Of a stretch of 64,000 nt of DNA, positions 15,346 through 48,729 are shown piece after piece (positions within the stretch are counted from its first letter, which is position 1; every line of letters starts with the position of its first letter). Origin of the DNA: an uncultured Gammaproteobacteria bacterium (lineage in GTDB: Bacteria; Patescibacteriota; Microgenomatia; Daviesbacterales; UBA10151); the NCBI GenBank assembly GCA_964406775.1, contig CAYOSW010000004.1:7392-71391 (forward strand), given 5' to 3'. The notes beneath the pieces were generated by a model. The model made no database searches. It had not been told where the DNA came from and saw nothing but the letters and a program-made list of their open reading frames with translations. Both the position numbers and the translations under genes were made by a program.

Positions 15346-15519
15346 TTTAGGCCCATAAAATCCGAAACTATATATAGATCAAAAATTATGAAGGCCTATA
15401 ATAACATACTCTATTATAAATTTCTAGCTTATAGTTGTTGAAATTAAATTTTTAAAAGTTTGAGTAAAAATTTTGACGAAGTCGCAAGCTTCGCTTTAGA
15501 CCTGAGTCGCAAGCTCTGC

Positions 15520-24652: not shown

Positions 24653-25693
24653 TTAAATTACCTCAATCGTTCCCGTATACATCCCCATAGAACACGTAAA
24701 AGCAATTTTCCCTTTTTCCATAGGAGTAAAGGTTAAAACTTCGGTGGTATTGGGCTGGACGTTTTTGCCGATTTTTAAGGAAGGGATCCGGAAAGCAGCT
24801 GCACAATTATAGGCATCTTTTGATACCAGACTCAGGTTAACGGGCACTCCCTGTTTTACTTTAAGATATGTCGGCGAATATCCTTTTGAATTAATCTCAA
24901 TTGTGGCATTTTGGACCCCGTTTTCAACTAACGCCTCCCCGCCGGGAGTTTCCTGGACCGATCCTCCTAATGATATTTCAATAGGAGAGTTCGCATATAA
25001 ATTCTGGAGCGAAAAAGAGGATCCGGAAACGACCAGAGCGCCGTTTAATGAAGTTATCCCGAGGTAAATAACAAGAATTGCCGCCAGTCTTAAGAATCTT
25101 CCGCGAAACTTATCGCCTAAAACCGAAGTTAGGGTTCCGAGTCCGAAAAACAGGGGAGAGGTGCCGAGAATAAAGAAAAACATAATTAACATTCCGTAAA
25201 AAGCACTCCCTGAGGAAATTGCGAGCGCCTCCATTGCAAGTGTGGTACCGCAGGGGATAAAAACAGTCATTGCACCGAGCAGGGCAGGCGCAAAGATATC
25301 TTTTGACTTGGATTGATTTTTGACAAGCCTTGTCAAAAATCTCGGGGGCTGAAAAACTACATACCTAAAAAAAGGATGCACATTCAATAGATTAAACCCG
25401 ACCGCTATCATATAAATTCCCGCGATTCCCTGCATCCAGATCTGGACACTCTGGCTGATATTTAACAGTCCTCCGAAAGCGCCTAGAACAAATCCTAAGA
25501 GGGAATAGGTGATTAGTTTTGAGACGACAAATGCGCCCACAGGCCAGAGGGAATTTTTGATATTTTTTTTAGACTCGATCTCTTTTTCTTCCCTAGCGGC
25601 AATAATTGAGGCTAACAATCCCCCCTGAACGGCAAGACAGGTTAGACCGCCCACAGTCAGGCCCGTTAAAAATATCACCCAAAGATTGGTCAT
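24653..25693 (-). CDS. Integral membrane protein (putative metal permease) with C-terminal cupredoxin-like Cys/Met domain
   Basis: About 230 aa with 6-8 TM helices, then a roughly 110-aa soluble C-terminal domain ending KIAFTCSMGMYTGTIEVI. This resembles a cupredoxin C-terminal strand (F-x-C...GM-x-G). Located between copA and copZ. Confidence 0.35.
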   Translation of the reverse strand: MTNLWVIFLTGLTVGGLTCLAVQGGLLASIIAAREEKEIESKKNIKNSLWPVGAFVVSKLITYSLLGFVLGAFGGLLNISQSVQIWMQGIAGIYMIAVGFNLLNVHPFFRYVVFQPPRFLTRLVKNQSKSKDIFAPALLGAMTVFIPCGTTLAMEALAISSGSAFYGMLIMFFFILGTSPLFFGLGTLTSVLGDKFRGRFLRLAAILVIYLGITSLNGALVVSGSSFSLQNLYANSPIEISLGGSVQETPGGEALVENGVQNATIEINSKGYSPTYLKVKQGVPVNLSLVSKDAYNCAAAFRIPSLKIGKNVQPNTTEVLTFTPMEKGKIAFTCSMGMYTGTIEVI

Positions 25694-27919: not shown

Positions 27920-27921
27920 AG

Positions 27922-28194
27922 CTATTTATTTATCCTTTTAAACAAGGTCACAATTTCGGTCACAGCCTTTTCCTTCTCGTTTTCTATCTGGTGCGCAACG
28001 TGAGTTTCCAGATGCCTTTCCAGTAATAATGTATCCAGACTTTTTAGTGAATTTTGGATTGCCAGGCTCTGGTTTAAAAGATCGATACAATACTCGTTGT
28101 TTTCGATCATTTTCTGCAGGCCTTCAAGCTGGCCTTTAATAATGTTTAGGCGTTTATTTGCGGCCACTTTTACGTCTTCGTAATGTGATTTCAT
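27922..28194 (-). CDS. csoR: CsoR/RcnR-family metal-sensing transcriptional repressor
   Basis: 90 aa all-helical DUF156-type protein with Cys (YCIDLL) and His (HLETHVAH) ligand positions. It sits directly upstream of copA. Confidence 0.8.
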
Positions 28195-35356: not shown

Positions 35357-36328
35357 TTATTCACCTCCTTTCAAAACTTTTTTGTATTCCTCAATAAAAA
35401 AATCGGCCAGCATTCCCCAACCGTCAATCCCGTACTCCTGCTTGAAAGAAGAGCGTAAAATCGAAAGGGCGTTAATGTCATAAACGAACCAATCTCCTTT
35501 TTGATCAACCAAATATTCAACACCTCCGCATTCCAGTCCGGCTTTTTGCACTGTTTTTTCTATGGCTTTTACAATTCCAGAAGGAATATCCCGAAAAAGT
35601 TCAAAGCGGACTGAGTCTCCGGGATTTGCAACACAATACCCGATTTCATTTTTCGCTTCGCCTCTCTCTATATCACAGGAGTCCGAAGGACATAAATTAA
35701 AAGTTCCCGGGGTAAAAACTTTCATCGCATAAATAACTTTTCCGTTAATAGTTTCTACCCTGATGATGTTATTTTCTTTCGGCTGTATAAATTCTTGAAG
35801 AATCAATAAATTATCAGTAGGCATAATTAAAGATTTGTCACCAATCGCATCAGCAAGAGACCGCTTTGACGTAAATTTTTGAATCCCCACCCCCGAACCT
35901 CCCAAATTAGGTTTGATGACTACCGGGAAAGTAAGTGAATCGATATTTTTTAGAATCCCGGATAATGAATTAACTATCACCGACTTTGGCTGAGGAATAC
36001 CCCAACTCCTTAGTAGCGACAACTGAAATGCCTTGTTTGTCTCAAGAATGACTGCCCTGGAACCGTTTATCACTCTTTTTCCTAAAGATTCCAAATATAG
36101 GATGTAATTTAATGTGAATGAGAAAGCCGATGAGTGATTACGGTTTCCCGCACTTGGACTTAAACGGTTTACAAAAAAAGGATATTTTATACCTGAAGTT
36201 GCATCGTATGCGGATGATGAGATATCCATCCTTTCATAGGAAATGTTTCTTCCGGAAAATTCCTGATATAGGGCGTCCAGCCAGAATGGATGTTCGTCTA
36301 AAATAATAATCGGTTGTTTATTGCTCAT
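35357..36328 (-). CDS. ATP-grasp ligase (RimK/LysX-like fold)
   Basis: VVIKPNLGGSGVGIQKF is the RimK-type P-loop-like segment. C-terminal GGVEYLVDQKGDWFVYDINALS is the Mg/ATP-binding region. SD GAGGAT upstream of the ATG. Confidence 0.7.
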   Translation of the reverse strand: MSNKQPIIILDEHPFWLDALYQEFSGRNISYERMDISSSAYDATSGIKYPFFVNRLSPSAGNRNHSSAFSFTLNYILYLESLGKRVINGSRAVILETNKAFQLSLLRSWGIPQPKSVIVNSLSGILKNIDSLTFPVVIKPNLGGSGVGIQKFTSKRSLADAIGDKSLIMPTDNLLILQEFIQPKENNIIRVETINGKVIYAMKVFTPGTFNLCPSDSCDIERGEAKNEIGYCVANPGDSVRFELFRDIPSGIVKAIEKTVQKAGLECGGVEYLVDQKGDWFVYDINALSILRSSFKQEYGIDGWGMLADFFIEEYKKVLKGGE

Positions 36329-36355
36329 TTTTTATCCTCACAAAATTTGGCCACT

Positions 36356-36600
36356 AAAAAAGCCCTTGCTTGCTTACTAGTTTCCTAATAAACAAACAAG
36401 GGCCTTCAAAAGGCGGTTCCACCTTGCTTCATCCGTTACCGGATCTCATTCCCTGACTCCTCCTCGCTGTGCTCTGAGTAAACTTTAAAGTCCACATCGA
36501 ACGAAGTGAGATGACATCAGTTTGTAATATTTTACAGTTTTACTTCTGTAATCCATTTTTGGATTCAGCTCCCGGATCGCAACTCCAGTCAAACGCTTGT
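36356..36600 (-). promoter_or_regulatory. T-box riboswitch leader (promoter, Stem III, T-box antiterminator, intrinsic terminator) upstream of the ATP-grasp operon
   Basis: On the minus strand, TTGACA (-35) is followed 17 nt later by ATATAA (-10). Stem III hairpin AUCCG-GUAA-CGGAU. T-box core GCAAGGUGGAACCGCC (plus-strand coordinates 36412-36427) matches the consensus AGGGUGGNACCGCG. Antiterminator: A1 CAAGG/CCUUG, 7-nt bulge UGGAACC, A2 GCC-UUUUGAA-GGC. Competing terminator: a 19-bp stem (three G-U wobbles) with GAAA loop and U6, plus-strand coordinates 36356-36404. Confidence 0.7.
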
Positions 36601-36719
36601 AAGTGTTTTATATCAAACTTTAGGCTCGGATGTCAACTATCCCTATTTTTTGAATGCTGATAGAAAACTCCACATCGTAATTATTTGGAATATACATAAT
36701 TTGCAGTAAAATACCGAAT

Positions 36720-36923
36720 ATGAACGAGATAGTAAAAAATTATGTGCAGAACTTCAGGACTGCCAGAAAAATGACTCAAGAAGATCTTGCACGGACCATA
36801 GGAGTAACTAGACAAACAATTATCGCAATTGAAAAGGGTAACTACACACCATCAGTCTTGTTAGCGTTAAAAATTGCCAAGTTCTTTAAGTCTTCTGTTG
36901 AAAAAATATTTAGATTAGAATAG
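36720..36923 (+). CDS. XRE-family helix-turn-helix transcriptional regulator
   Basis: 67 aa. MTQEDLARTIGVTRQTIIAIEKGNYTPSVLLALKIAKFF is a canonical Cro/C1 HTH. Confidence 0.85.
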   Translation: MNEIVKNYVQNFRTARKMTQEDLARTIGVTRQTIIAIEKGNYTPSVLLALKIAKFFKSSVEKIFRLE

Positions 36924-36930
36924 ACATACT

Positions 36931-37284
36931 ATGCTCACTGAAACATTAACACTAATAATTATTTTCATTATTGCAATTATTTTTTTGAATCCGGGCCATC
37001 TGGCAATGCCTGATACAATCAATTCAATTTTAATATTCGGGTTTATTTTAGCGTTCCTAATCTTTGCTGCATTCATTATTCGCGAAAAATCATCCGACGA
37101 GAGAGAGTCTTTACATATACTAAAAGCCGGCCGGCTATCCTACTTAACGGGGGTGGGGGTATTAGTTTTGGGAATAATTTTCCAGGCACTTAAACACGAG
37201 GTAGATCCCTGGTTAGTCTTGGCAATATGTGCTATGACCCTATCAAAGATAATCTCTAGAATATATTCAAGATTCAAACTCTGA
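36931..37284 (+). CDS. Small polytopic membrane protein, conserved partner of XRE-type regulators (DUF2178-like arrangement)
   Basis: 117 aa with 3-4 TM helices. Starts 8 nt after the HTH gene stop. Confidence 0.45.
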   Translation: MLTETLTLIIIFIIAIIFLNPGHLAMPDTINSILIFGFILAFLIFAAFIIREKSSDERESLHILKAGRLSYLTGVGVLVLGIIFQALKHEVDPWLVLAICAMTLSKIISRIYSRFKL

Positions 37285-37364
37285 GTCATTTTAGCCTTAG
37301 GATGTAAAGCGTACTTGACATTATGTTTCCAGCGGGGCTAGAATAATTTCAAGGGGGTGAGTTT

Positions 37365-37919
37365 ATGAAATATGCAAGCATAGGAATTGTTGTTTTAGTT
37401 ATTTTAGCGATCGGAGGATTCTATCTTTACTTTCAAAATCAAACAGCTTCCGACTCTATGATGAAGCAGGACGAAGTTATGATGGAGCAGTCCGGTGATT
37501 CAATGGAGAAAACAGATTCTATGATGGATAAAGCTTCAGGAACCGATTCCGGAGCTATGATGGGAGATAAGGCATCAGCAGATAATATGATGTCCGGGGG
37601 AGGCTATCAGCCGTTCTCTCAAAGCGCTTTCGACAGCGCCAAAGGTGATAAAAGAGTTTTATTCTTCTTTGCCAACTGGTGTCCGACCTGTAAGCCTATC
37701 GATGCAGAATTGAGTGCAAATGCAGCTAAAATACCCGAAGGAATTGAAATATTCAGAGTTAACTATAATGATACAGACACCGATGCAGCAGATAAGGAAC
37801 TTGCTGCAAAGTATGGTATTACATATCAGCACACGTTTGTTCAAGTTGATGCTTCAGGAGGCGAAATCGCTAAATGGAACGGTGGCGGACTGGACAAGAT
37901 AGTTTCGATGGTTAAATGA
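37365..37919 (+). CDS. Membrane-anchored thioredoxin-like protein with methionine-rich (putative Cu(I)-binding) linker
   Basis: N-terminal TM helix, then a Met-rich low-complexity region (MMKQDEVMMEQSGDSMEKTDSMMDKASGTDSGAMMGDKASADNMMSGG), then a thioredoxin active site FFANWCPTCK. Confidence 0.7.
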   Translation: MKYASIGIVVLVILAIGGFYLYFQNQTASDSMMKQDEVMMEQSGDSMEKTDSMMDKASGTDSGAMMGDKASADNMMSGGGYQPFSQSAFDSAKGDKRVLFFFANWCPTCKPIDAELSANAAKIPEGIEIFRVNYNDTDTDAADKELAAKYGITYQHTFVQVDASGGEIAKWNGGGLDKIVSMVK

Positions 37920-37923
37920 TAGT

Positions 37924-39705
37924 ATGGAACAAGGACAGGTAAAACTGTCTTTGTTTTTCACTATGATTCTACTAATAATTTTCGCATTTCTGGCAGGAAT
38001 CGTCACAATTCTTTCGCCCTGCATTCTGCCGATACTTCCGATAATTTTATCCTCGGGCTTCGGTACAGTCCAAACAGGAAAGGGAAGGCCTCTTGGCGTT
38101 ATCACCGGCTTCATTTTAAGTTTTACTTTTTTCACCCTATTTCTCTCAACAATAGTCGGCGCTATCGGAATCCCGGCAGATTATTTAAGACTTTTTTCCG
38201 TTGCAGTAATTGCTCTTTTTGGAGTATCTATGCTTATCCCGAAATTCCAAATATTTTTAGAAATTTTGTTCTCAAAACTGTCGCAATTTTTACCCCAATC
38301 CCAAAATAGTACCGGCTTCGGCGGAGGAATAATAATCGGACTATCTCTCGGACTATTATGGACTCCTTGTGTGGGACCTATACTTGCATCAGTAATTTCT
38401 CTGGCCATTACGGGCGCTGTGACACTTGATGCATTCTTCATTACTTTAGCGTATTCCTTGGGAACTGCAATCCCGATGTTCTTTATAATGATTGCCGGCC
38501 AAACTGCTCTGCGTAGAGCTCCCTGGCTTTTAAATAACGCCTCAAAAATTCAACAGGGTTTCGGAATTCTAATGATACTTACGGCAATAGCCATTTTCTT
38601 TAATTTTGACCGCAATTTTCAAACATTCATCCTCAATACTTTTCCCAATTACGGAACCGGTTTGACAAAATTTGAAGATAATCCCCAAATTCAAAACGCT
38701 TTACAGAAGCTGTCGGGGGAAACAGTAGAGGAAGAGAATGTCGGGAAAGCTATGTTCGACCTGGCTCCAAAAGGAGATCCGGCTCCGGAGATTATTCCCG
38801 GCGGAGAGTGGTTTAACAGCCCCCCCTTAACTATGAAGAGCTTGCGGGGGAAAGTTGTTTTAATAGATTTTTGGACATACTCCTGTATCAATTGCCAGCG
38901 GACTTTGCCCTATTTAAAATCTTGGTGGGAAAAGTACAAGGATAAAGGATTGGTAATTATCGGTGTTCATTCCCCTGAATTTGAATTTGAAAAAAATCCC
39001 AAAAATGTTGAAAAAGCTATCGCCGATTTTGGGTTAACTTATCCGGTAGTGCAAGACAATGATTTCTCCACTTGGCGCGCCTATAAAAACCGTTTCTGGC
39101 CGGCTAAATATTTAATAGACAAAGATGGCAATATTAGGTATACCCACTTTGGAGAAGGAGCTTATGATGAGACTGAAAAAGTTATTCAGGAACTCTTAGC
39201 AGAGACAGGTTCTGATGTCACTCAAACCCAAATTAGTAATCCAACATATGAAAATTATGCTAAAACTCCTGAACTCTATCTTGGGTATTGGAGGATTGAA
39301 GCTTTATCGTCACCTGAATTTATCGTCAAAGATGCCGGCGCTTTGTATACCTCTTCTCTTACTCCGCCTGCTAACAAATTTGGGTTATCAGGTGAGTGGG
39401 ATGTTATGGAGCAATACTCTAATCCAAAAAAAGATTCGTTATTGTTTTTGAATTTTGACGCTAAAGAAGTTTTTTTAGTTATGCGGTCAAAGGATGGAAA
39501 AACCGCTGGCAAAGTCAAAATATATTTGGATAACAAACCTGTTTCCGAAGCCGATTCAGCTGGAGTTGATGTTAAAGACAGCGTTGTTACAGTAACCGGC
39601 GACACTCTCTATAAATTAATCAATCTCCCCACCCCCGGCCGTCATATTTTAAAACTGGAATTTTTGGATAGTAACACTGAAGTTTATGCTTTTACTTTTG
39701 GCTAG
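37924..39705 (+). CDS. CcdA/DsbD-type thiol-disulfide transporter fused to TlpA/redoxin-like thioredoxin domain
   Basis: N-terminus LAGIVTILSPCILPILPIILS is the CcdA signature with Cys, followed by 6 TM helices. Mid-region FWTYSCINCQRTLPYL is the redoxin CxxC. A C-terminal region of about 180 aa has unknown fold. Confidence 0.8.
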   Translation: MEQGQVKLSLFFTMILLIIFAFLAGIVTILSPCILPILPIILSSGFGTVQTGKGRPLGVITGFILSFTFFTLFLSTIVGAIGIPADYLRLFSVAVIALFGVSMLIPKFQIFLEILFSKLSQFLPQSQNSTGFGGGIIIGLSLGLLWTPCVGPILASVISLAITGAVTLDAFFITLAYSLGTAIPMFFIMIAGQTALRRAPWLLNNASKIQQGFGILMILTAIAIFFNFDRNFQTFILNTFPNYGTGLTKFEDNPQIQNALQKLSGETVEEENVGKAMFDLAPKGDPAPEIIPGGEWFNSPPLTMKSLRGKVVLIDFWTYSCINCQRTLPYLKSWWEKYKDKGLVIIGVHSPEFEFEKNPKNVEKAIADFGLTYPVVQDNDFSTWRAYKNRFWPAKYLIDKDGNIRYTHFGEGAYDETEKVIQELLAETGSDVTQTQISNPTYENYAKTPELYLGYWRIEALSSPEFIVKDAGALYTSSLTPPANKFGLSGEWDVMEQYSNPKKDSLLFLNFDAKEVFLVMRSKDGKTAGKVKIYLDNKPVSEADSAGVDVKDSVVTVTGDTLYKLINLPTPGRHILKLEFLDSNTEVYAFTFG

Positions 39706-39755
39706 CTCGCCCCTTTTCAGCTATTTTTAAGCATCCGGAGTATAATTCATAGCTA

Positions 39756-40415
39756 ATGAGAATTCTTGTTGTGGAGGATGAACATAAAATCGCTACGTCC
39801 TTAAAAAAAGGTTTGGAACAGGAAAGTTACGCTGTTGACCTGGCTTTTACAGGTACTGAAGGATACGACTTAGCAGCAAGCGAAAATTACGATTTAATAA
39901 TTCTGGATGTCATGCTTCCGGGAATTTCCGGAATAGAAATTTGTGCAAAATTGCGGGGAGCAAATATTCACACGCCGATACTAATGCTGACCGCCCGGGG
40001 ACAAACAGGCGATAAAGTCCAGGGACTTAATTCAGGGGCTGACGATTATTTAACTAAGCCTTTTGCTTTTGAGGAATTGCTTGCAAGAATTAAAGCACTC
40101 TCCAGAAGACCTACAAAAACTACCGGATCGGTCTATAACGTAGCGGATTTAAAATTGGACACTATTACTTATGACGTAAAGCGTGGGGATAAAAAAATTA
40201 ACCTGTCTTCAAAAGAATTTTCTCTTTTGGAATATCTGATGCGCAATAAAAATACGGTTATAAGTAAGGATCAAATCATTGAACACGTTTGGGATTACGA
40301 TTCGGATATTTTACCTAATACGGTTGAGGTATTTGTCGGATATTTACGGAATAAGCTCGGAAAACCGGATTTAATTACAACGGTAAGAGGGTTTGGATAT
40401 AAGATAGAGGGATAA
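39756..40415 (+). CDS. OmpR-family response regulator
   Basis: MRILVVEDE...DLIILDVMLPG receiver domain plus a C-terminal winged-helix (KLDTITYDVKRGDKKINLSSKEFSLLEYLM). Confidence 0.9.
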   Translation: MRILVVEDEHKIATSLKKGLEQESYAVDLAFTGTEGYDLAASENYDLIILDVMLPGISGIEICAKLRGANIHTPILMLTARGQTGDKVQGLNSGADDYLTKPFAFEELLARIKALSRRPTKTTGSVYNVADLKLDTITYDVKRGDKKINLSSKEFSLLEYLMRNKNTVISKDQIIEHVWDYDSDILPNTVEVFVGYLRNKLGKPDLITTVRGFGYKIEG

Positions 40416-40416
40416 T

Positions 40417-41448
40417 ATGTTTGACAGGGCAAGACTTAAACTTACCGGATTTTATTTACTGATTATTATGTTAATCAGTATCTCTTTCAGCTTTTTCATT
40501 TACAGATTTTTAACATCTGAAATAAACCGCGCGTTGAATATGGAAAAACTTCACCAGATGGGAGTTTATTACCCCGCAAAGAGATTTATTTTTTTTAACG
40601 ACAATGACACCGTTACAAAAGGAATTGTAATCACTCCCCCGAGCACAGAGATACTCGAGGAAGCAAAACAAAGAATTCTCTATATCCTGATTGCTGTTAA
40701 TCTGGGAATTTTCTGTTTGTCCGGAGCAGCCGGATATTTCCTTGCCGGAAGAACTTTAAGACCGATCAAACAAATGGTTGATGAGCAGAACCGTTTTATT
40801 ACCGACGCTTCCCACGAGCTCCGAACTCCTCTTACATCTTTAAAATCGGAGATCGAAGTAAATTTAAGGGACAAAAAATTAACTCTTTCAGACGCCAGAA
40901 AAATTCTGGAAAGCAATCTTGAGGAAGTTAATAATCTTCAATATTTATCCGACAATCTAATTAAACTCGCTCAAACTCGTAAACCGAACGGATTACAGCT
41001 CAGTAGAGTGTTTGTTCTAAATATCGCAAAATTAAGTATAAAGAAGGTTGAGAAGTTGGCTGCAAAAAAGAAAATAGATATAAAAAGTGATATTGACGAT
41101 ATAGTTCTTAAAGGAGATCCTCAAAGCCTAACCGAATTATTCGTTATCTTTTTAGATAATGCAATAAAATATTCACCTGAAAAATCTCAAATAGACTTTA
41201 ATGTAAAAAGATCGCGCGGCAATGCCGTTATCGAAATTATTGACCGTGGAATTGGCATAGAAGAAAAAGATATGCCATTGCTTTTTGAAAGATTTTACCG
41301 GGCAGACCAGGCACGAAGTAAGGACGGATTCGGACTCGGACTCTCTATTGCAAAAGATATAGTCGATAAACACGACGGATCTATTGAGGTAAAGAGCAAA
41401 ATTAATAGAGGAACAACTTTTAAAATCAAACTGCCTCTAAAACACTGA
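40417..41448 (+). CDS. Sensor histidine kinase (HisKA + HATPase_c)
   Basis: Two TM helices, H-box DASHELRTPLTSL, and G-boxes DRGIGIEEKD / GFGLGLSIAKDIV. ATGTTTGA overlap with the response-regulator stop. Confidence 0.85.
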   Translation: MFDRARLKLTGFYLLIIMLISISFSFFIYRFLTSEINRALNMEKLHQMGVYYPAKRFIFFNDNDTVTKGIVITPPSTEILEEAKQRILYILIAVNLGIFCLSGAAGYFLAGRTLRPIKQMVDEQNRFITDASHELRTPLTSLKSEIEVNLRDKKLTLSDARKILESNLEEVNNLQYLSDNLIKLAQTRKPNGLQLSRVFVLNIAKLSIKKVEKLAAKKKIDIKSDIDDIVLKGDPQSLTELFVIFLDNAIKYSPEKSQIDFNVKRSRGNAVIEIIDRGIGIEEKDMPLLFERFYRADQARSKDGFGLGLSIAKDIVDKHDGSIEVKSKINRGTTFKIKLPLKH

Positions 41449-41510
41449 TAGTCTTAAGCTTTCCTTCAGATTAAATTGATAAATTATCTTTAAAGATTGG
41501 GGGTGATTAA

Positions 41511-41996
41511 ATGTTTAAGAAAAAAGTGTTTTTTCCTATTTTAGCTTTGGCGATAATAGGGACAGCAGTTGCCACGAGCGGTTTTGTATCGGCTCAGGAC
41601 ACTAGCGGACCGAATTCTTTAGTCTCGGCAATAGCTCAGAAATTCAATCTTAACGAGTCCGATGTTCAATCGGTTTTCGATGAACAAAGAGCAAAACACC
41701 GGGAAGAAATGAAGGCGAATTTGGAGCAGAAGCTTACAAAAGCAGTTGCAGACGGAAAGATAACAGAAGCTCAGAAAGCGGCAATACTGGCTAAAATTAC
41801 AGCGAATCAGGCTGACAAACCCGATTTCGGAGAGTTTAAAAACTTAACTCCGGAACAGAGGAAAGCCAAGATGGATGAGAAGAGAACCGAGATGGAAAAT
41901 TGGGCTAAAGAAAACGGGCTGACGCTCGATACACTTCACGACCTGATTGGAGGTCCAGGCAGGTTTGGAAAAGGGATGATGTTTAAGCTGCATTAA
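41511..41996 (+). CDS. Secreted LTXXQ-motif protein (CpxP/Spy/ZraP-like periplasmic stress protein)
   Basis: Signal peptide. Helical and charged, with ITEAQ and LTPEQ (LTXXQ-like) motifs. It lies immediately downstream of the two-component system. Confidence 0.45.
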   Translation: MFKKKVFFPILALAIIGTAVATSGFVSAQDTSGPNSLVSAIAQKFNLNESDVQSVFDEQRAKHREEMKANLEQKLTKAVADGKITEAQKAAILAKITANQADKPDFGEFKNLTPEQRKAKMDEKRTEMENWAKENGLTLDTLHDLIGGPGRFGKGMMFKLH

Positions 41997-42007
41997 TCTT
42001 TTCTACT

Positions 42008-42040
42008 CAGCTCCCGGCTCGAGACGGGAGCTGTTTTGTT
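42008..42040 (+). terminator. Rho-independent terminator
   Basis: CAGCUCCCGGCUCGAGACGGGAGCUG is a perfect 11-bp stem, followed by UUUUGUUG. Confidence 0.6.
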
Positions 42041-42120
42041 GTACAATACCTTTTCACTGCTCAGTATTCTGCTCAAATAAATTTCAGCTTGCTTTCAGTT
42101 TTATAGGATAAATTATATTT

Positions 42121-43395
42121 ATGCCGGATCCGATTTTGGGCAAAGTTAAAAACATATTCAGGAATAGATTAGTCACAGCTATTATTTTGATTGCGCTAAT
42201 CGGCGGAGGCTATTTGGTTTATAAAAACTATTTCGTATCGGAGCAAGAAATTGCATATCAATCGGCAGTGGCTGAAAGAGGTACTTTGGTTTCATCAATT
42301 TCCGCTTCCGGAAAAATCACCCAGGGAAATAGTTTGAATATTACCTCGCAGGCAACGGGGGTTGTCAGTAAACTCTACTTCAAAAACGGCGATACCGTTA
42401 CAAAAGGGCAAACCATCGCCGAAATCACTCCGGATTTAAATTCGGCTCAAAACCAAGCACAAGCTTGGGCTGCTTATGTCAGCACCTCAAACAATTTAAA
42501 AAATTCGGAAAACAATGTCCGCAATACTCAGGCCTCACTTGATAAAACACTGGATGACATACATTTATTCCAATACGGAAACGGCGGATTTGCCAATGTC
42601 GGAACAGGAAACGAAACAATGGAGCAGCGCGAAGCAAGGACTAGCAAAGAAGTTGCCCTAAATAACGCTCAGAATAATTTAATTTCGGCTCAGGCCCAAA
42701 TCGCATCAAGCTGGCTTGCATACCAGCAGGCTTCGACCATCATAACCGCGCCTTTTGACGGCATCGTCAGCGCGATGACAATTTCCGAAGGTTCAACAAT
42801 CACCGCCGGCTCGTCTAACGCAACAACCACCCCGTCGCAAACATTGGGTGCCTTAATTTTGCCTAATGCCCGGCTTCAGGCAAGCGTTAATTTGACTGAG
42901 ATTGACGTAACAAAAGTTAACGCCGGACAAAAAGTAACTCTCACTATGGATGCATTTCCCGGAAAAACTTTCACTGGAAAAGTTTTAAGTATCAACACCA
43001 ACGGATCGGTCTCGTCAGGGGTCACAACATATCCCGCGGTTATCGAATTTGACACCGAAGCCCAAGGCGTTTACCCCAATATGGCGGTTAGCGCGACAAT
43101 TATTACTGCGGTTAAAGATAACGTAATTTTAGTTCCAAGCGCGGCCGTTACCAAATCCGGAGATCAATCTTCGGTCAAAGTTTTAAAAAGCGGACAGCCT
43201 GAAACCGTCAATGTCGAAACAGGAGATACAAACGATACTCAAACCGAAATAGTTTCAGGCGTTAACGATGGCGATGAAATTATAACCGGCTCAACAGGAA
43301 CTACCTCAACGACTTCAAATTCAACCTCCCCGTTTGGCGGATTAGGAGGAAGAACAGGGGGAGGAGCGGGGCGCGCGGTCTTTATTGGCAGATGA
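42121..43395 (+). CDS. Efflux transporter periplasmic adaptor (membrane fusion protein, MacA/HlyD-like)
   Basis: N-terminal TM, coiled-coil and lipoyl/beta-barrel-like regions. Gly/Thr-rich C-terminal tail. Upstream of MacB-like ABC genes. Confidence 0.75.
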   Translation: MPDPILGKVKNIFRNRLVTAIILIALIGGGYLVYKNYFVSEQEIAYQSAVAERGTLVSSISASGKITQGNSLNITSQATGVVSKLYFKNGDTVTKGQTIAEITPDLNSAQNQAQAWAAYVSTSNNLKNSENNVRNTQASLDKTLDDIHLFQYGNGGFANVGTGNETMEQREARTSKEVALNNAQNNLISAQAQIASSWLAYQQASTIITAPFDGIVSAMTISEGSTITAGSSNATTTPSQTLGALILPNARLQASVNLTEIDVTKVNAGQKVTLTMDAFPGKTFTGKVLSINTNGSVSSGVTTYPAVIEFDTEAQGVYPNMAVSATIITAVKDNVILVPSAAVTKSGDQSSVKVLKSGQPETVNVETGDTNDTQTEIVSGVNDGDEIITGSTGTTSTTSNSTSPFGGLGGRTGGGAGRAVFIGR

Positions 43396-43398
43396 TAT

Positions 43399-44103
43399 AT
43401 GATTCAGCTCAAAAACATATCCAAGATTTACCAAACAGGCAGTGTTGAAGTAAAAGCGCTGGATAATATCTCTTTTGAAATAAAAAAAGGCGAATTTGTT
43501 GCAATAATGGGTCCTTCGGGATCGGGAAAATCGACATTAATGCATATCTTAGGCGCTCTTGACTCCCCCACTTCCGGAGAATATTTTCTGGATGGCGGAA
43601 ATGTCAGCCTCCTAAAAGATGACGAGTTAGCTGAAATCCGCAATAAAAAAATAGGTTTCATTTTCCAAGCTTTTAATCTCCTCCCCCGGCGCTCGGCTTT
43701 GAAAAATGTAATGCTGCCGATGATTTATGCCGGCATCCCCAAAAAAGACCGTGAACAAACAGCCAGAAAATATCTGGAAATGGTCGGGCTTGGCAACAGA
43801 CTCGACAATACTTCTAACCAACTTTCCGGAGGACAGCAGCAAAGGGTAGCAATCGCCCGAGCACTAACTTTAAATCCTTCCATCCTATTGGCAGATGAAC
43901 CGACCGGTAACATTGCCTCAAATCAGGCTCAGGAAATAATGAAAATTTTTGAAGAATTAAATAATCAGGGACATACCGTCGTTATGATCACCCACGAACC
44001 CGATATTGCCGAACACGCCAAAAGAATTATTTTCATCCGCGACGGAAAAATAGAAAAAGATGCAAGTTCTCATAAACGAAAGAGGTCACTTGGAATACAC
44101 TGA
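43399..44103 (+). CDS. ABC transporter ATP-binding protein (MacB/LolD-like)
   Basis: Walker [10 protein letters not shown], signature [15 protein letters not shown], Walker B ILLADEPT. Confidence 0.9.
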
Positions 44104-45313
44104 AATTTTATCGGAGGCCGTCGGGACATTAACAGTTAATAAATTAAGAACCGGGCTAGCAACTCTCGGAATAGTCATCGGTATCGGTTCCGTTATCGCC
44201 TTAATTTCCTTAGGTCAGGCAAGCTCGCAAGCGATCCAATCACAGATCCAATCTTTAGGATCCAATCTTTTAACCGTCCAGCCGGGAGGACAATCGCAAG
44301 GCGCAGTTAGAGGCGCGGCGGGAGGAGGTTCAACTTTAACTTTAGCCGATGCCAACGCAATCAAAACTTCCCCTCAAATTACAACAGTTTCAAACGTTTC
44401 CCCTGAATTTTCCAGCCGCTCTCAAGTAACAACCGGGAGTTCAAACACCAACACCCAAATTATCGGCGTTACTCCCGAATATGCACTAATCAGAAAAACC
44501 GAAATGGAAAGCGGAAATTTTATAACCGAGTCAAATGTTAATTCCTTATCAAAAGTCGCGGTCTTAGGGCCGCAAGTCGTAGCCGATCTTTTCGGTGAAG
44601 GCGCAAATCCTCTCGGTCAAAGCATCAGGATTAATGGCCAGACTCTAACGGTGATTGGCGTAACAACCTCAAAAGGAGGTACCGGATTCCAAAATCAGGA
44701 TGATATTATTTGGGTTCCCCTCTCCACCGCGCAAAAGCAGCTATTCGGTTCGGATTATTTATCATCGATCGCGGTTGAGGCAAAGTCTGCCGACAAGATG
44801 GTCGACGCCCAAAACGAAGTGGGATATTTGCTTTTATCCCGTCATAAAATCGCGGACCCTGCGGACCGGGATTTCTTTATCTTTAATCAGCAGGATTTAT
44901 TAAATACAGTTTCCCAAACCACCGGAACTTTTACAACTCTTCTTGCCGGAGTTGCGGCAATTTCGTTACTAGTCGGCGGAATCGGAATTATGAATATTAT
45001 GCTCGTAACCGTAACAGAAAGAACCCGGGAAATCGGACTCAGAAAAGCTCTCGGCGCCAAGAAAAAAATAATCGTCACCCAATTTTTAGTTGAAGCGATA
45101 ATTTTAACTTTTGCGGGAGGGATAATCGGCGTCGGAGTCGGAATACTTGCCTCTTATTTAATAGCAACTTTTACCGGCTCGCCTTTTGTTGTTTCGATAC
45201 AATCGATCGCTCTTGCCTTCGCCGTTTCTGCAGGGATAGGTATTTTATTCGGCTGGTACCCCGCCCGCCGCGCTGCTAATTTACAACCGATAGAAGCTCT
45301 GAGATACGAGTAG
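44060..45313 (+). CDS. ABC transporter permease, FtsX/MacB-type (4 TM + periplasmic domain)
   Basis: N-terminal TM (LATLGIVIGIGSVIALISLG), a large periplasmic domain, and a C-terminal 3-TM bundle. The true start is probably the TTG at about 44090 after SD AAAGAGG. The ORF-track start at 44060 overlaps the ATPase gene. Confidence 0.8.
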   Translation: MQVLINERGHLEYTEILSEAVGTLTVNKLRTGLATLGIVIGIGSVIALISLGQASSQAIQSQIQSLGSNLLTVQPGGQSQGAVRGAAGGGSTLTLADANAIKTSPQITTVSNVSPEFSSRSQVTTGSSNTNTQIIGVTPEYALIRKTEMESGNFITESNVNSLSKVAVLGPQVVADLFGEGANPLGQSIRINGQTLTVIGVTTSKGGTGFQNQDDIIWVPLSTAQKQLFGSDYLSSIAVEAKSADKMVDAQNEVGYLLLSRHKIADPADRDFFIFNQQDLLNTVSQTTGTFTTLLAGVAAISLLVGGIGIMNIMLVTVTERTREIGLRKALGAKKKIIVTQFLVEAIILTFAGGIIGVGVGILASYLIATFTGSPFVVSIQSIALAFAVSAGIGILFGWYPARRAANLQPIEALRYE

Positions 45314-45314
45314 C

Positions 45315-45776
45315 TTACGTGCGAGAGAAGTTGATTATGTATTTAGTTATAAACTTTACAAGGGCTTGGAATACATTCGCCCTATCAGCCATTTCGGAAT
45401 TAGAAACATCAAATGCAATTTCGTAAAGAACTGTCGGAGGTACGTCTAGCCATTTACCATTAAAACTTAAAAAAACTAACAGTGCCATCACAGCTACCCT
45501 TTTATTCCCATTTTTAAAAGGGTGATTTTTTATTAAAGAAAAGAATAGAATTGCTGCTTGCTCAGCCAACGAAGGGTAAAGAAACTTACCATCAAACATC
45601 TGCTTCGGAGCACCAAGCGAAGACTCTAATAAATTATTATCCCTTGTGGAGTAATCTGGAATGGGTTCTCCGTATGACATTAACTCTCTCGCCATATCGA
45701 AGCAAAGAAATTCGAAATCTTCTGACTCTATCCAATGGAAATTATGTTGCTGCAAGTCTTCTGAAAGTTTCTGCAT
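45315..45776 (-). CDS. doc: Doc (death-on-curing) / Fic-family toxin
   Basis: HPFKNGNKRVAV matches the Doc variant of the Fic motif, HxFx(D/N)GNKR. 153 aa. Confidence 0.8.
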   Translation of the reverse strand: MQKLSEDLQQHNFHWIESEDFEFLCFDMARELMSYGEPIPDYSTRDNNLLESSLGAPKQMFDGKFLYPSLAEQAAILFFSLIKNHPFKNGNKRVAVMALLVFLSFNGKWLDVPPTVLYEIAFDVSNSEMADRANVFQALVKFITKYIINFSRT

Positions 45777-45935
45777 ATTGTTTTATTCCGCGCTTAACAG
45801 CCTTTTTTATTATTCTAGCTTTTACTGGATTTTTAGTTTCGTACTGTTTATTTGTTGTCTTGTTCATACCCTTTATGATAACACATTATTGATAAGTTAT
45901 CTTTTAAGCATTTTCTCAGATTCCTACCTATATAA

Positions 45936-46407
45936 TATGTTGAAGATGAAAAAAGAAATTTTATATCCGGTTATTACTGCCGTTATTGTCGGTGCCGTCG
46001 CTTTTTATGGCGGGATGCATTACCAGCAATCAAAAAGAGCTGCCTTTTTTGCGGACGGAAAAGGCAACTTTAACTTCCAGGGGCAGGGTGGACGGATGAT
46101 GGGCGGGAACGGCAGCGGACAGGGCCGCGGAGGTATGATGGGATCCCGCCCAACCGTCGGAGAGGTAATTTCTTCGGATGATAAATCAATCACAGTCAAA
46201 TTAGATGACGGTTCAACTAAAATCGTTTTAATTTCGGAGAGTACAACGATTAATAAAACCGATCCCGGTTCAAAAGCTGATCTGAAAGAGGGAACTAAAG
46301 TTGCGGTTTTCGGTACCGACAATAACGGCACGGTTACCGCCCAAAGCATCCAACTCAATCCGCAAATCCGCACTTTCCAAAGCTCCCCCAGCGCTTCGCC
46401 CAAATAA
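45936..46407 (+). CDS. Membrane-anchored secreted protein with Gly/Met-rich linker and DUF5666-like beta domain
   Basis: The likely start is MLKMKKEILYP with a TM helix, then QGQGGRMMGGNGSGQGRGGMMG, then a repetitive beta-rich segment (SITVKLDDGSTKIVLISESTTINK...). The upstream part of the ORF-track frame is discounted. Confidence 0.4.
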
Positions 46408-46435
46408 TTAATTCCTCTACGGTGTTAAAATTAGA

Positions 46436-47620
46436 ATGATGAGACTTCTTCTTGTTGTAATTATCGTTTCGCTTTTGATAGTTGCCGGTGCAATTCATTA
46501 TTTTTACCCGACTCTTTACGGAATAATTCCCGATAAATCCGCAGATATTCCTAAACTGAATCTTCTCCCCAGCCCGGCCCCAACAGGCGGAGATGAAAAC
46601 GGAATCCCGGATGCCGATATTCCCGCAGAAACTATAGTTACTGAAGGACTCGACACTCCCTGGGCAATTGCTTTTTTACCCACCGGGGATATGTTGGTTA
46701 CGGAAAGAAAAGGAACTATCCGGTTAGTTACTAAAAACGGACAGCTAGGGGAAGATCCCGTCTCAACGATTGGAAGTGTAAAAGAAATCGGGGAAGGCGG
46801 ACTTTTAGGAATTGCGCTACATCCGGATTTTGAAAAAAATAATTATGTCTATCTCTACTACACTTTTTCCGCCGAAGGAGACAGCACTAAAAACAGGGTA
46901 GTCAGAATGAAGTATGACAATGGGAAATTAATTAATGAGGAAATAATTCTCGACAAAATCCCCGGAGCCTCTAATCACAACGGCGGAAGAATCAAATTCG
47001 GACCCGATAACTTCCTATATATAACAACCGGTGATGCTCAGGAACCATCTCAAGCTCAGGATAAAAATTCTCTTGCCGGAAAAATCTTAAGGGTGACTCC
47101 GGAAGGAAAACCCGCTCCGGACAATCCTTTTAATAACGAGGTCTATTCCTACGGTCACAGAAACCCGCAGGGAATTGCCTGGGGAAAATCCGGAATAATG
47201 TATGAAACGGAACACGGCCCATCAGGCGGGAGTTTGGGAACCGGTAACGACGAAGTCAATGTAATTAGACCGGGTGATAATTACGGCTGGCCCGTTATTC
47301 AGGGAGATCAGACTAAAGAAGGAATGGTTACACCGAGTAATAATTCTACTCCGTCAGTTGCCTGGGCTCCCGGTGGACTGGCTGTTATCGATAATAAACT
47401 ATACTTCGGAGGTTTACGCGGGCAAGCCTTATATTTGCAGTACCCTGAGGACGAAAGCTTAATTTTTAAAGAGTATTTTAAGGGAAAGTACGGAAGGATC
47501 AGAGAAGTTATTCTCGGACCGGACAATATGCTTTATATAGCCACAAGCAACCGCGACGGAAGAGGAATGCCCAATAAAACCGATGACCGGATAATTAGAA
47601 TCAATCCTTCAAAGCTCTGA
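46436..47620 (+). CDS. PQQ-dependent soluble sugar (glucose/sorbosone) dehydrogenase-like beta-propeller
   Basis: LDTPWAIAFLPTGDMLVTERKGTIRLV and later HNGGRIKFGPD and YSYGHRNPQG segments are typical of the GSDH family. N-terminal TM/signal. Confidence 0.7.
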   Translation: MMRLLLVVIIVSLLIVAGAIHYFYPTLYGIIPDKSADIPKLNLLPSPAPTGGDENGIPDADIPAETIVTEGLDTPWAIAFLPTGDMLVTERKGTIRLVTKNGQLGEDPVSTIGSVKEIGEGGLLGIALHPDFEKNNYVYLYYTFSAEGDSTKNRVVRMKYDNGKLINEEIILDKIPGASNHNGGRIKFGPDNFLYITTGDAQEPSQAQDKNSLAGKILRVTPEGKPAPDNPFNNEVYSYGHRNPQGIAWGKSGIMYETEHGPSGGSLGTGNDEVNVIRPGDNYGWPVIQGDQTKEGMVTPSNNSTPSVAWAPGGLAVIDNKLYFGGLRGQALYLQYPEDESLIFKEYFKGKYGRIREVILGPDNMLYIATSNRDGRGMPNKTDDRIIRINPSKL

Positions 47621-47694: not shown

Positions 47695-48729
47695 ATGCAA
47701 AAAGCTAACCTGCCCTGGCTTTTCATTCTCAATGTTTTCCTGCTTGTTGTCCTTTTCATCTCGCTTTCTAAACCCGCTTCAGTAAAATCGGCACTTGCTG
47801 AGCATATTGTTATTTCCGAGGTTCAGATTGGCGGAGAATCCGCGAATGACGAGTTTGTTGAGCTTTATAATCCGACCGGTTCGGATTTGGATTTAACCGG
47901 CTGGAGACTTGCCAGAAAAACTTCCGGTACGTCATCTGCAAACCTTGTGACAACTATGAGCGGATCCATCCCCGCTCACGGATATTTCTTAGTTACTCCT
48001 CCGACAGGCTATACCGGTGCGGTACCGGCAGATTTAGTTTACTCCCCTGCCGGAACCAGAATCTCCGCCGACAATACTGTTTATCTTTACGGAAGCGATA
48101 GTGCAACTCTGGTTGATAAGGTAGCTATCGGCGATGGTGCGACTGACGGGGAAGGAAACCCCGCGCCTCTGCCGGGAGCGGGACAAAGCATAGAGCGAAA
48201 AGCTAAAACTTCTTCGACTTCAGAATCGATGGAATCGGGCGACGCAAACCAGGGTAACGGCGAGGACACAGACAACAATTCTGACGACTTCATTTTAAAG
48301 AGCGTCTCCGGACCTCAGGATTCAACATCTTCCGCAGAAATCCTCAGTGCCTCGCCTAGTCCGTCATCATCAGAGAGTGCCTCTCCTTCGGTTGAGCCTT
48401 CCGAAGAACCATCCGCCTCCCCGTCCGCATCTCCGAGTGCGGAACCGTCCGAATCTCCGAGTCCTTCTGCCTCAGCCAGCGCAACCCCAACTCCTTCTGC
48501 CTCCCCTAGCACAGCACCAAGCTCCTCTCCTTCGGCTCAACCCTCATCAAGCCCCAGTATGAGTCCCAGCGCTTCGTCATCTGCATCTCCAAGTACAAGT
48601 CCTCAACCGTCTCCTACTCCGAATCCGGGAAGGCCAAAATTGGTCTGCAAATTTGAGCCGATAAAAGTCAAGTTCGGTAAATTCGAGTTTACACTTTATA
48701 ATTTCTCCTGCCGGTGGACTAATTCTTAA
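47695..48729 (+). CDS. Secreted lamin-tail-domain (LTD) protein with long Ser/Pro/Ala-rich repeat region
   Basis: Signal peptide. The LTD core is HIVISEVQIGGESANDEFVELYNPTGSDLDLTGWRLARK. About 100 aa of SPSASPS-type low complexity follows, then a short Cys-containing C-terminus. Confidence 0.6.
   Translation: MQKANLPWLFILNVFLLVVLFISLSKPASVKSALAEHIVISEVQIGGESANDEFVELYNPTGSDLDLTGWRLARKTSGTSSANLVTTMSGSIPAHGYFLVTPPTGYTGAVPADLVYSPAGTRISADNTVYLYGSDSATLVDKVAIGDGATDGEGNPAPLPGAGQSIERKAKTSSTSESMESGDANQGNGEDTDNNSDDFILKSVSGPQDSTSSAEILSASPSPSSSESASPSVEPSEEPSASPSASPSAEPSESPSPSASASATPTPSASPSTAPSSSPSAQPSSSPSMSPSASSSASPSTSPQPSPTPNPGRPKLVCKFEPIKVKFGKFEFTLYNFSCRWTNS

Follow-up and report, generated by a model that had tools for sequence, protein, structure and literature searches.

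A run of plus-strand genes at 37365-45313 of the window examined here, the whole 64-kb stretch (64,000 nucleotides) of contig CAYOSW010000004.1, encodes an anchored thioredoxin, an electron conduit, a two-component system, a small secreted protein, and an ABC-type exporter, and the question that this locus raises is whether these genes constitute one envelope stress system. A preliminary description had treated them as seven consecutive genes forming a self-contained unit. The genes are consecutive, lie on one strand, and have the coordinates given there, but they number eight, and we consider it probable that they belong to two independent, mostly ordinary envelope modules that are neighbors in this lineage only, because the two halves differ in regulator, in cis-element, and in evolutionary distribution. 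Module A (36720-39705) is likely a relay that reduces thiols on the outer face of the membrane and includes an unusual methionine-rich thioredoxin, and module B (39716-46407) looks, with a similar degree of confidence, to be the regulon of a two-component-controlled MacB-type exporter together with two small secreted partner proteins. The limits 37365-45313 cut through both entities, omitting an XRE-type regulator and a membrane protein on one side (36720-37284) and a DUF5666-like gene on the other (45937-46407). The features of module A are as follows.

36720-36923, plus strand: XRE-family helix-turn-helix (HTH) regulator, 67 aa (Pfam HTH_3, E=1.3e-14)
36931-37284, plus strand: multi-pass membrane protein, 117 aa, collinear with the XRE and thioredoxin genes in 57 of 72 loci
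37302-37321, plus strand: imperfect palindrome ATGTAAAG-CGTA-CTTGACAT, putative XRE operator, overlapping the -35 box of the thioredoxin promoter
37315-37344, plus strand: sigma-70-like promoter TTGACA-18-TAGAAT for the thioredoxin and DipZ genes, 11 of 12 positions, the best promoter-like match in 36200-46600
37365-37919, plus strand: thioredoxin (Trx) with a transmembrane (TM) anchor and the active site W-C106-P-T-C109; TM 3-27, linker ~30-76 (nt 37452-37592), Trx fold 80-184
37924-39705, plus strand: DipZ (Rv2874-like) conduit; DsbD_TM 16-224, Redoxin/AhpC-TSA 301-413, C-terminal domain 448-593 (Pfam)

The features of module B, with a minus-strand Fic/DOC-family gene that lies within its span, are as follows.

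39716-39731, plus strand: direct repeat TTCAGC-TATTT-TTAAG, 40 nt upstream of the response regulator start; putative autoregulatory site
39756-40415, plus strand: response regulator (RR), OmpR/PhoB family (Pfam Response_reg and Trans_reg_C)
40417-41448, plus strand: histidine kinase (HK) with two TM segments and an outside loop of ~55 aa, read from the sequence (Pfam HisKA and HATPase_c)
41454-41469, plus strand: direct repeat TTAAGC-TTTCC-TTCAG, 57 nt upstream of P5
41511-41996, plus strand: P5, a secreted all-helical protein of 161 aa with ITEAQ/LTPEQ motifs and a Gly/Met-rich C-terminal tail
42008-42033, plus strand: intrinsic-terminator-like hairpin after P5, 9-bp stem with 7 GC pairs and a T-run
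42083-42098, plus strand: direct repeat TTCAGC-TTGCT-TTCAG, 38 nt upstream of the adaptor gene
42121-43395, plus strand: membrane-fusion adaptor protein (MFP) of the HlyD/MacA/YknX type (Pfam HlyD_D23 and HlyD_3; NCBIfam RND_mfp, 133 bits against a cutoff of 94.9)
43399-44103, plus strand: ABC ATPase of the MacB/LolD type (Pfam ABC_tran, 121.2 bits; best NCBIfam match the N-terminal half of MacB, 272.6 bits)
44060-45313, plus strand: MacB-type permease (Pfam MacB_PCD, 159.8 bits, E=1.5e-46; FtsX, 78.6 bits, E=5e-22)
45315-45776, minus strand: Fic/DOC-family gene between the permease and DUF5666-like genes (Pfam, E=1.8e-15)
45904-45919, plus strand: direct repeat TTAAGC-ATTTT-CTCAG, 33 nt upstream of the DUF5666-like gene
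45937-46407, plus strand: DUF5666-like membrane-anchored protein with a Gly/Arg/Met-rich linker (Pfam DUF5666, E=2.8e-4, below the gathering score)

The domain content of the eight genes had largely been read correctly, as judged with Pfam and NCBIfam. The protein at 37365-37919 is a membrane-anchored thioredoxin with a TM anchor, a WCPTC motif, and a Pfam Thioredoxin match of 30.6 bits against a cutoff of 23.5; the Pfam domains of RR and HK identify an OmpR-type two-component system; and the MacAB-like efflux genes are present as an adaptor, an ABC ATPase, and a permease carrying both MacB_PCD and FtsX domains in one operon. The exporter proteins reach no equivalog-level NCBIfam model, the adaptor passing only the generic RND_mfp subfamily. 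Because the permease open reading frame (ORF) has its first start codon inside the ATPase gene, translation may in fact begin further downstream.

To what extent these genes travel together was assessed from both ends. For the first survey, an alignment of the Trx family was scanned over the GTDB one-genome-per-species collection, yielding at least 584 confirmed loci; 80 of them, from 80 species, were kept with 10-kb flanks, and the proteins of the window were mapped onto them. DipZ lies directly downstream of Trx in 64 of 69 loci, and the XRE-HTH and small membrane protein genes lie directly upstream in 57 of 72. The order that the preliminary description had proposed to look for in relatives is kept in full in only one of 60 Trx-anchored loci: downstream of Trx-DipZ, a two-component system is found in 1/60 loci, P5 in 1/48, and a MacB-type permease in 2/48. 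The sole locus with a two-component system after DipZ, L035, comes from a close relative whose RR is 79% identical. De novo clustering of neighboring ORFs identified a membrane-anchored MsrB immediately after DipZ as the next commonest neighbor, with MsrA elsewhere; one or the other accompanies Trx-DipZ in 25 of 66 loci, and MsrB is on the same strand and less than 400 nt from DipZ in 14 of 63. Genes for cytochrome c maturation were not found in the neighborhoods examined.

The second survey scanned metagenome contigs with a tight P5 alignment; one further locus, L133, was located separately via the contig encoding the P5 homologue P0137. In these P5-anchored loci RR, HK, P5, MFP, the ABC ATPase, and the permease recur together in several permutations, along with the DUF5666-like gene. 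The order is that of the window in L089 and L104 and is permuted in L084, L087, L090, L099, L101, L118, and L130, and the DUF5666-like gene follows the permease in L084, L089, L099, L101, L104, L118, and L130. Trx and DipZ accompany the block only in the close relative L082, which is without the exporter genes. In the Daviesbacteria locus L002, a glucose/sorbosone dehydrogenase (GSDH) gene lies ~1 kb beyond DipZ; in the window the GSDH gene comes after the DUF5666-like gene. Judged by this comparison of gene orders, module B looks like an insertion, a block placed between DipZ and the GSDH gene. A GC content of ~40% and all homologues, labeled Daviesbacteria, Levybacteria, and Woesebacteria, assign the window to the Microgenomates group within the Candidate Phyla Radiation (CPR). 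We note that many record titles among L001-L080 (TPA assemblies) read "uncultured Gammaproteobacteria", "Pseudomonadales", "Bdellovibrionales", or "Saccharibacteria", while the gene content matches Microgenomates; the submitter taxonomy labels of those records are probably wrong.

The two halves also carry different cis-elements. In module A, the palindrome at 37302-37321 is the only zero-mismatch site in the window for the pattern ATGTAAAG-N4-CTTGACAT, which is present in all 56 loci that have the XRE gene versus 3 of the 20 that do not, and which occurs in only 2 places in 426 kb of P5-anchored loci taken as a control. It lies between the membrane-protein gene and Trx in 39 loci and upstream of XRE, sometimes twice, in 19; the latter arrangement goes with tight packing of the four genes, which are then separated by no more than a ribosome-binding site. 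The left half of the palindrome stays conserved whether it falls within the end of the membrane-protein ORF or in noncoding sequence, so it is a cis-element and not a coding constraint. The sequence ACTTGACATT in the Trx promoter region is likewise conserved across loci. Because the palindrome overlaps the -35 box, we infer that it is the operator of the XRE protein and that this protein acts as a repressor; the stretch that it is predicted to bind is ATGTAAAGCGTACTTGACAT. The co-encoded membrane protein has no Pfam or NCBIfam match and shows the conserved motifs NP..MP and E..DERE..H...A.R in 59 sequences; it is a likely candidate for the signal input to XRE control. In seven loci (L045, L053, L058, L066, L072, L073, and L075), the palindrome is duplicated upstream of XRE, with one copy over the -35 box and the other just 3' of the -10 box, which suggests tighter autorepression of the whole operon in those lineages.

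In module B, when the upstream regions of RR, P5, MFP, and DUF5666 were compared within the window and with distant loci, a direct repeat with a period of 11 bp emerged, TT[A/C]AGC-N5-[C/T]T[A/C]AG (TTMAGC-N5-YTMAG; TTMAGCNNNNNYTMAG), positioned just 5' of a -10-like box. Such an arrangement is the classical geometry of activator sites of the OmpR/PhoB family. The pattern matches exactly four times on both strands of the 64 kb, against 0.40 matches expected, and none of 100 shuffles reaches four; all four matches are on the plus strand, at the positions listed above. In independent loci, a relaxed form of the repeat lies within 160 nt upstream of RR in 10 of 12 cases, of P5 in 15 of 35, and of MFP in 2 of 5 (background, 0.044 sites per kb), and in L035 it precedes RR, P5, and DUF5666. 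The same relaxed repeat is absent upstream of Trx (0/72), XRE (0/56), and DipZ (0/65). The OmpR-type direct repeats that the preliminary description had suggested seeking upstream of 41511 and of 37365 are thus present before the former and missing before the latter. The proposal that RR-HK, P5, and the exporter respond together is borne out: they make up a co-regulated set.

The preliminary description had favored a single stress unit. Taken over all eight genes, that model would have the two-component system sense copper, silver, or envelope misfolding and induce the relay, a CpxP/Spy-like chaperone, and the exporter together. The genes do share a strand and are separated by short gaps, the best NCBIfam matches of RR include the heavy-metal regulator subfamily, albeit below the cutoff, and a Trx-CcdA-MsrAB locus with a two-component system exists in Fusobacterium nucleatum (PMC9239216). 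A further set of observations likewise weighs against two independent modules. No terminator-like hairpin was found in the 50-nt gap between DipZ and RR, so transcription from the Trx promoter could continue into RR-HK in this genome. The adjacency Trx-DipZ-RR-HK-P5 recurs in two independent assemblies of close relatives, L035 and L082, and with the window this makes three, which leaves room for a residual lineage-specific coupling of the modules. P5 is attached less firmly to the block: among P5 loci with at least 5 kb on both flanks, P5 has a two-component system within 3 kb in only 5 of 15 and an exporter within 8 kb in 5 of 15. L134 has P5-RR-HK only, and L135 has P5 alone. Both cis-element patterns were defined after inspection of the sequences; the independent evidence lies in the contrasts between gene classes and between locus sets. 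As for module A, neither MsrA nor MsrB is encoded in the 64-kb window, and its link to Msr therefore rests on analogy with relatives; its thioredoxin, moreover, has replaced the cis-proline that normally aids substrate binding, which is odd for a plain electron shuttle.

Against the single unit stand several observations: the gene order is kept in one locus of 60, the RR-type repeat never precedes Trx or XRE, Trx-DipZ has its own promoter and putative operator, L082 carries Trx-DipZ-RR-HK-P5 without an exporter, and P5 is no detectable relative of Spy/CpxP. Nor do the regulators qualify as heavy-metal (CusRS/CopRS/CzcRS) family members. RR, whose best NCBIfam matches are RppA and the heavy-metal subfamily, all below their cutoffs, scores 222 bits where 279.2 are needed, and HK, which reaches no NCBIfam model, scores 150 bits against the heavy-metal cutoff of 292.55. 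The outside loop of HK is ~55 residues long; copper sensors of the CusS type have a sensor domain of roughly 150 aa. Taken together, we regard a single eight-gene unit as very improbable. The claim that the combination had not been described as a unit becomes moot, since the gene set is no unit, and a Trx-CcdA-MsrAB locus with a two-component system is in any case already published (PMC9239216).

With two modules as the preferred reading, module A can be considered on its own. The preliminary description had read the conduit as a CcdA-TlpA fusion with an extra C-terminal domain of about 180 aa. That order of domains is correct; the extra domain measures ~146 aa, matches Pfam Thioredoxin_10 (CBM-like) with 106 bits, and belongs to the already described architecture of DipZ/Rv2874. 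The ectodomain matches PDB entries 2hyx and 5cyy with E=1.2e-60 over residues 287-540. The relay cysteines in SPC33ILP and TPC149VGP are conserved in 74 and 75 of 76 homologues, the ectodomain carries C321-I-N-C324, and the Cys motifs overall are kept in 68-75 of the 76. Both cysteine pairs that a disulfide relay between Trx and a CcdA-TlpA-type protein calls for are hence present and conserved, and the relay put forward in the preliminary description remains plausible. In such a relay, electrons from a cytoplasmic thioredoxin would pass to C33/C149 of DipZ, from there to C321/C324 of its own TlpA-like ectodomain, and then to C106/C109 of Trx, the most probable partner, and/or to Msr or other substrates outside. 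The XRE protein, as a repressor at the operator overlapping the -35 box, would control Trx-DipZ, with the membrane protein as its signal input, and module A as a whole probably represents a CPR version of CcdA-Etrx-Msr repair of extracytoplasmic oxidative damage.

The thioredoxin itself is unusual. Its AF2 model shows a TM helix at residues 3-27, a disordered segment at 30-75 (pLDDT <50), and a confident minimal Trx fold at 80-184, with the CxxC where classical thioredoxins have it, at the N-terminus of helix 1, and the top Foldseek matches are classical thioredoxins with a TM-score (target) of ~0.7. A word-indexed search placed 1,277 proteins in the family at E<=1e-3. The linker was said to carry nine MM/MxM motifs, which is an overcount: its 11 Met in 55 residues form five MM dipeptides plus one single Met, with no MxM and no MxxM. 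The Met-richness as such is conserved, with at least 4 Met in 119 of the 120 best homologues (median 8, range 1-14) and a recurrent motif SMMKKDE/AMMEK. The preliminary description had named a Met-rich region absent or variable in orthologues as the sign of mere low-complexity drift; the composition is conserved and drift of that kind is thereby excluded. Nor is a Met-rich linker a general trait of anchored exoproteins. Among 1,825 ORFs of the related loci, the 50 aa after the anchor contain a median of 6 Met in 73 Trx members versus 1 in 268 other singly anchored exoproteins, the other Met-rich exceptions being two fasciclin-domain proteins, DUF305 proteins, and the DUF5666-like proteins of module B. 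The fasciclin (FAS1) exoproteins, at 14915-15541 (minus strand) in L050 and 19928-20491 (minus strand) in L002, have a TM anchor and a Met-rich acidic linker as in Trx, which suggests a type of Met-rich stalk common to a few Microgenomates exoprotein families. A correlation between linker Met count and Msr adjacency was looked for and not seen (median 7 vs 6). For the acidic tether, the most likely roles would be an oxidant-scavenging, Msr-recyclable Met sink or flexible reach.

A metal-binding function had been proposed on the strength of this linker. In its fullest form, module A would be a device for copper or another soft metal in which the Met tether captures Cu(I), the CxxC and His156 bind it, and DipZ keeps the protein, a metallochaperone or sequestering protein of Sco/ScsC-like character, reduced. 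The near-universal Met-rich linker and its rarity in other exoproteins of these genomes agree with this proposal, as does the fact that, of four further kinds of protein having Met-rich stretches, two (the DUF305 family and the CPx ATPase) are copper-associated. CPx ATPase, DUF305, and SO_0444-like genes lie within 10 kb in 8 of 80 loci versus 0 of 52 control loci, and the residue that an invariant His replaces in Trx is one proposed to prevent metal binding by CxxC (PMC2757866, citing Su et al. 2007). However, motifs of the Cu(I)/Ag(I)-binding style (CopC/PcoC/Ctr1/CusF), that is, MxM/MxxM or clusters of Met and His, do not occur in the linker: the MM dipeptides sit in an acidic/lysine context, and most homologous linkers contain no His. 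Fasciclin-domain exoproteins have a linker of this kind too, Msr genes adjoin about three times oftener than copper genes, and the fold search yields classical thioredoxins, giving no support to a Sco-like fold. The window does encode a canonical copper-export pair on the minus strand, an HMA-CopA-like CPx P-type ATPase with a GMHCASC metal-binding domain at its N-terminus (25697-27925) and an SO_0444-like protein with DsbD_2 and cupredoxin-like domains (24656-25693), but this pair is 10 kb away on the other strand, with unrelated genes between, and is not linked to the modules. The copper/silver reading of the linker is weakly supported, and module A as a copper device seems to us unlikely. 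A relaxed repeat match, CTCAGCTCAATCTCAG, occurs at 25735 (minus strand), ~30 nt upstream of the SO_0444-like gene; it is within chance expectation.

A plainer explanation would deny the Met-rich segment any chemistry of its own and see in it a lineage-typical, disordered, hydrophilic stalk that lets Trx reach through the cell wall. The predicted disorder of residues 30-75 is what a stalk would show, the linker measures 31-70 residues in 119 of 120 homologues while its Met count ranges from 1 to 14 (the outlier, of 112 residues, looks like an over-extended gene call), and a stalk of this style is also present on the fasciclin proteins. Nothing would oblige a pure spacer to retain Met, however, and here Met is enriched ~6-fold over other anchored exoproteins and ~10-fold over a 2% background, down to ~45% identity, with the SMMKKDE/AMMEK motif recurring. 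We find this explanation about as doubtful as the copper device.

The second peculiarity of Trx lies next to its CxxC. The invariant residues of the family lie in WCPxC, RVNYND, TYQHT, and WNGG, segments that in thioredoxins map to the loops around the active site, and TYQHT is present in 114 of 120 homologues. P76 of E. coli thioredoxin aligns with His156, which is invariant in alignment A1, so that the conserved cis-Pro loop of classical thioredoxins is not found in Trx. Peroxiredoxins have Arg at the cis-Pro position. Because His replaces a near-universal proline, a Trx of this type likely has a specialized function. The cis-Pro has been proposed to contribute to the substrate-binding site and perhaps to keep the CxxC motif from binding metals (PMC2757866, citing Su et al. 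2007). His156 as a copper ligand was considered; a literature check gave no usable support, and we make no use of the argument. A bolder proposal is that the Microgenomates-wide Trx family is not an ordinary disulfide reductase at all: it would hold a Cys2-His copper site, recharged by DipZ and served by the Met tether as a "fishing line", or else run a tethered Met/Met-sulfoxide antioxidant cycle, and the XRE/membrane-protein sensor pair would switch either one via ATGTAAAG-N4-CTTGACAT. We think this unlikely, and keep to the thiol-reducing relay as our reading of module A. A full-text literature search, incomplete in its coverage, returned no paper on methionine-rich thioredoxins in Patescibacteria.

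In module B, the OmpR-type RR would bind the 11-bp-spaced repeats before its own operon, P5, the MFP-ABC-permease operon, and the DUF5666-like gene, making the module an autoregulated, stress-inducible, monoderm-style exporter (YknXYZ/MacAB-like) with P5 and the DUF5666-like protein as accessory exoproteins; the MFP homologue in L133 carries YknX-type Pfam domains. P5 had been assigned to the CpxP/Spy/ZraP family from its LTXXQ motifs. Its signal peptide, read from the sequence, ends VSA/QD with cleavage between, and the mature protein contains one exact LTXXQ (LTPEQ, residue 112) besides ITEAQ (84) and ITANQ (96); the I/L-T-x-x-Q element of "DGKITEAQK" is nearly invariant in a family of 4,193 representative clusters (50% identity) at E<=1e-3, or 1,175 at E<=1e-30, that has no Pfam model. 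The assignment fails every test of profile homology: none of 35 P5 members matches the LTXXQ, Spy, or Metal_resist Pfam models at E<=1, CpxP/Spy/ZraP chains are absent from single-sequence and profile searches of the PDB at E<=10, and in hhalign comparisons of the P5 profile with manually entered E. coli sequences, Spy gives a 19-column match around ITEAQK/LTDAQK with a probability of 9.5% and CpxP one of 0.35%. A single entry in IMG with at least 90% identity to P5 bears the name "Spy/CpxP family protein refolding chaperone"; the IMG names of other members are inconsistent (tRNA synthetase, phospholipase C, ComGC, and others). With the homology tests negative and the names inconsistent, the likeness of P5 to Spy/CpxP is one of motif only.

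Some details of the module B promoters and proteins may be recorded here. The -10-like boxes at 39741-39756, 42108-42121, and 45928-45937 end ~7-10 nt before the start codons of RR, MFP, and DUF5666, which no Shine-Dalgarno sequence precedes; judging from the sequence, it may be that these genes are leaderless or that translation begins at a later codon. A clear GGAGGTG ribosome-binding site precedes P5 and Trx, and is found in most relatives. A 16-mer, TTGATAANTTATCTTT, was considered as a regulator site and rejected, since L035, L082, and other module B loci do not conserve it at the corresponding positions and its placement relative to the direct repeat differs, downstream in the P5 promoter and upstream in the DUF5666 promoter. 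In the form TTGATAA(A/G)TTATCTTT, with the palindrome GATAAnTTATC, it occurs only at 41476-41491 and 45889-45904 in the 64 kb. Low-complexity Gly/Arg/Met-rich segments are seen at the C-terminus of P5 (GGPGRFGKGMMFKLH, 41950-41996), in the DUF5666 linker (GGRMMGGNGSGQGRGGMMG, 46010-46080), and at the C-terminus of MFP (GGLGGRTGGGAGRAVFIGR, 43330-43395), and those of P5 and DUF5666 recur in homologues. The stop codon of the Fic/DOC gene is 1 nt from that of the permease; in most other loci the permease and DUF5666-like genes are adjacent. Beyond module B, at 47695-48729 (plus strand), the window encodes a secreted Lamin Tail Domain protein followed by a Ser/Pro/Ala-rich region of ~150 residues with SPSASPS repeats, which probably explains the locally raised GC content (0.47).

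The attractive seven-gene "metal/redox stress island" is, on our reading, a juxtaposition. What is widespread in CPR is a four-gene cassette of XRE, membrane protein, Met-rich Trx, and DipZ, in many cases with MsrB or MsrA behind it, with at least 584 matching stretches, and this cassette probably supplies reducing power outside cells that have very few redox systems. The building blocks are all of known kinds, namely DipZ, CcdA-thioredoxin-Msr relays, OmpR-type two-component systems, and MacB-type exporters, while the CPR-wide cassette with its operator, the Trx family with His for cis-Pro, the module B repeat, and the P5 family appear to be undescribed. Two concrete predicted cis-elements make regulon prediction possible in uncultured Microgenomates. 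These findings refine annotation and provide testable hypotheses; they do not overturn current understanding.

Among characterized systems, the conduit most resembles Mycobacterium tuberculosis DipZ/Rv2874 (2hyx, 5cyy), with the same three-part architecture and an identical C-I-N-C. The literature describes Rv2874 as an electron transporter of the CcdA type, with an ectodomain made up of a Trx-like domain (Cys-Ile-Asn-Cys) and a carbohydrate-binding module (PMC7479077, citing Goldstone et al. 2016). Unlike Rv2874, the DipZ described here comes from a CPR bacterium, invariably follows a dedicated anchored Trx, and usually follows an XRE/membrane-protein pair. Module A as a whole is closest to the CcdA-Etrx-MsrAB systems (S. 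pneumoniae Etrx1/2-CcdA1/2-MsrAB2; S. gordonii SdbB/Sgo_1177; F. nucleatum Trx-CcdA-MsrAB-ModRS), with which it shares a conduit and a surface-tethered thioredoxin as well as, in the 25 of 66 relatives mentioned above, an msr gene alongside. Those systems serve extracellular oxidative-stress resistance (PMC3914529, PMC7034828) and shield surface proteins of streptococci and Fusobacterium against oxidants (PMC3914529, PMC7034828, PMC9239216), the F. nucleatum locus including a two-component system (PMC9239216). Module A differs in its fused DipZ conduit; in a Trx that is TM-anchored and not a lipoprotein, has a Met-rich tether, and is without the cis-Pro; in a regulator that is of the XRE type with its own operator and not the adjoining two-component system; and in having no msr gene within the window. 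E. coli CcmG/DsbE and TlpA/ResA, reductants fed by DsbD/CcdA, offer a third comparison: Trx likewise is anchored outside and has a DsbD-family conduit encoded beside it, gives weak NCBIfam dsbE matches, and has WCPTC, the active-site motif of CcmG as well. Unlike these proteins, Trx is a minimal classical fold without the TlpA/ResA insertion and without the cis-Pro.

For module B, the likeness of P5 to CpxP, Spy, and ZraP lies in its being small, secreted, and all-helical, with LT/ITxxQ motifs and a two-component system beside it, and extends to regulatory logic, with the regulator's repeat in its own promoter and a terminator after it. By analogy, P5 is wired to its putative regulator in the manner of CpxP and Spy, without detectable homology to them. 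Like MacAB and Bacillus subtilis YknXYZ, the exporter combines an MFP adaptor with a separately encoded ABC ATPase and a permease of four TM segments that has MacB_PCD and FtsX domains; unlike them, module B has two extra regulon members, P5 and the DUF5666-like protein, with no counterpart there. Exporters of this type under two-component control are known from staphylococci, where HssRS-HrtAB is an example, and module B resembles them in having an adjacent OmpR-type system and repeats in the exporter promoter.

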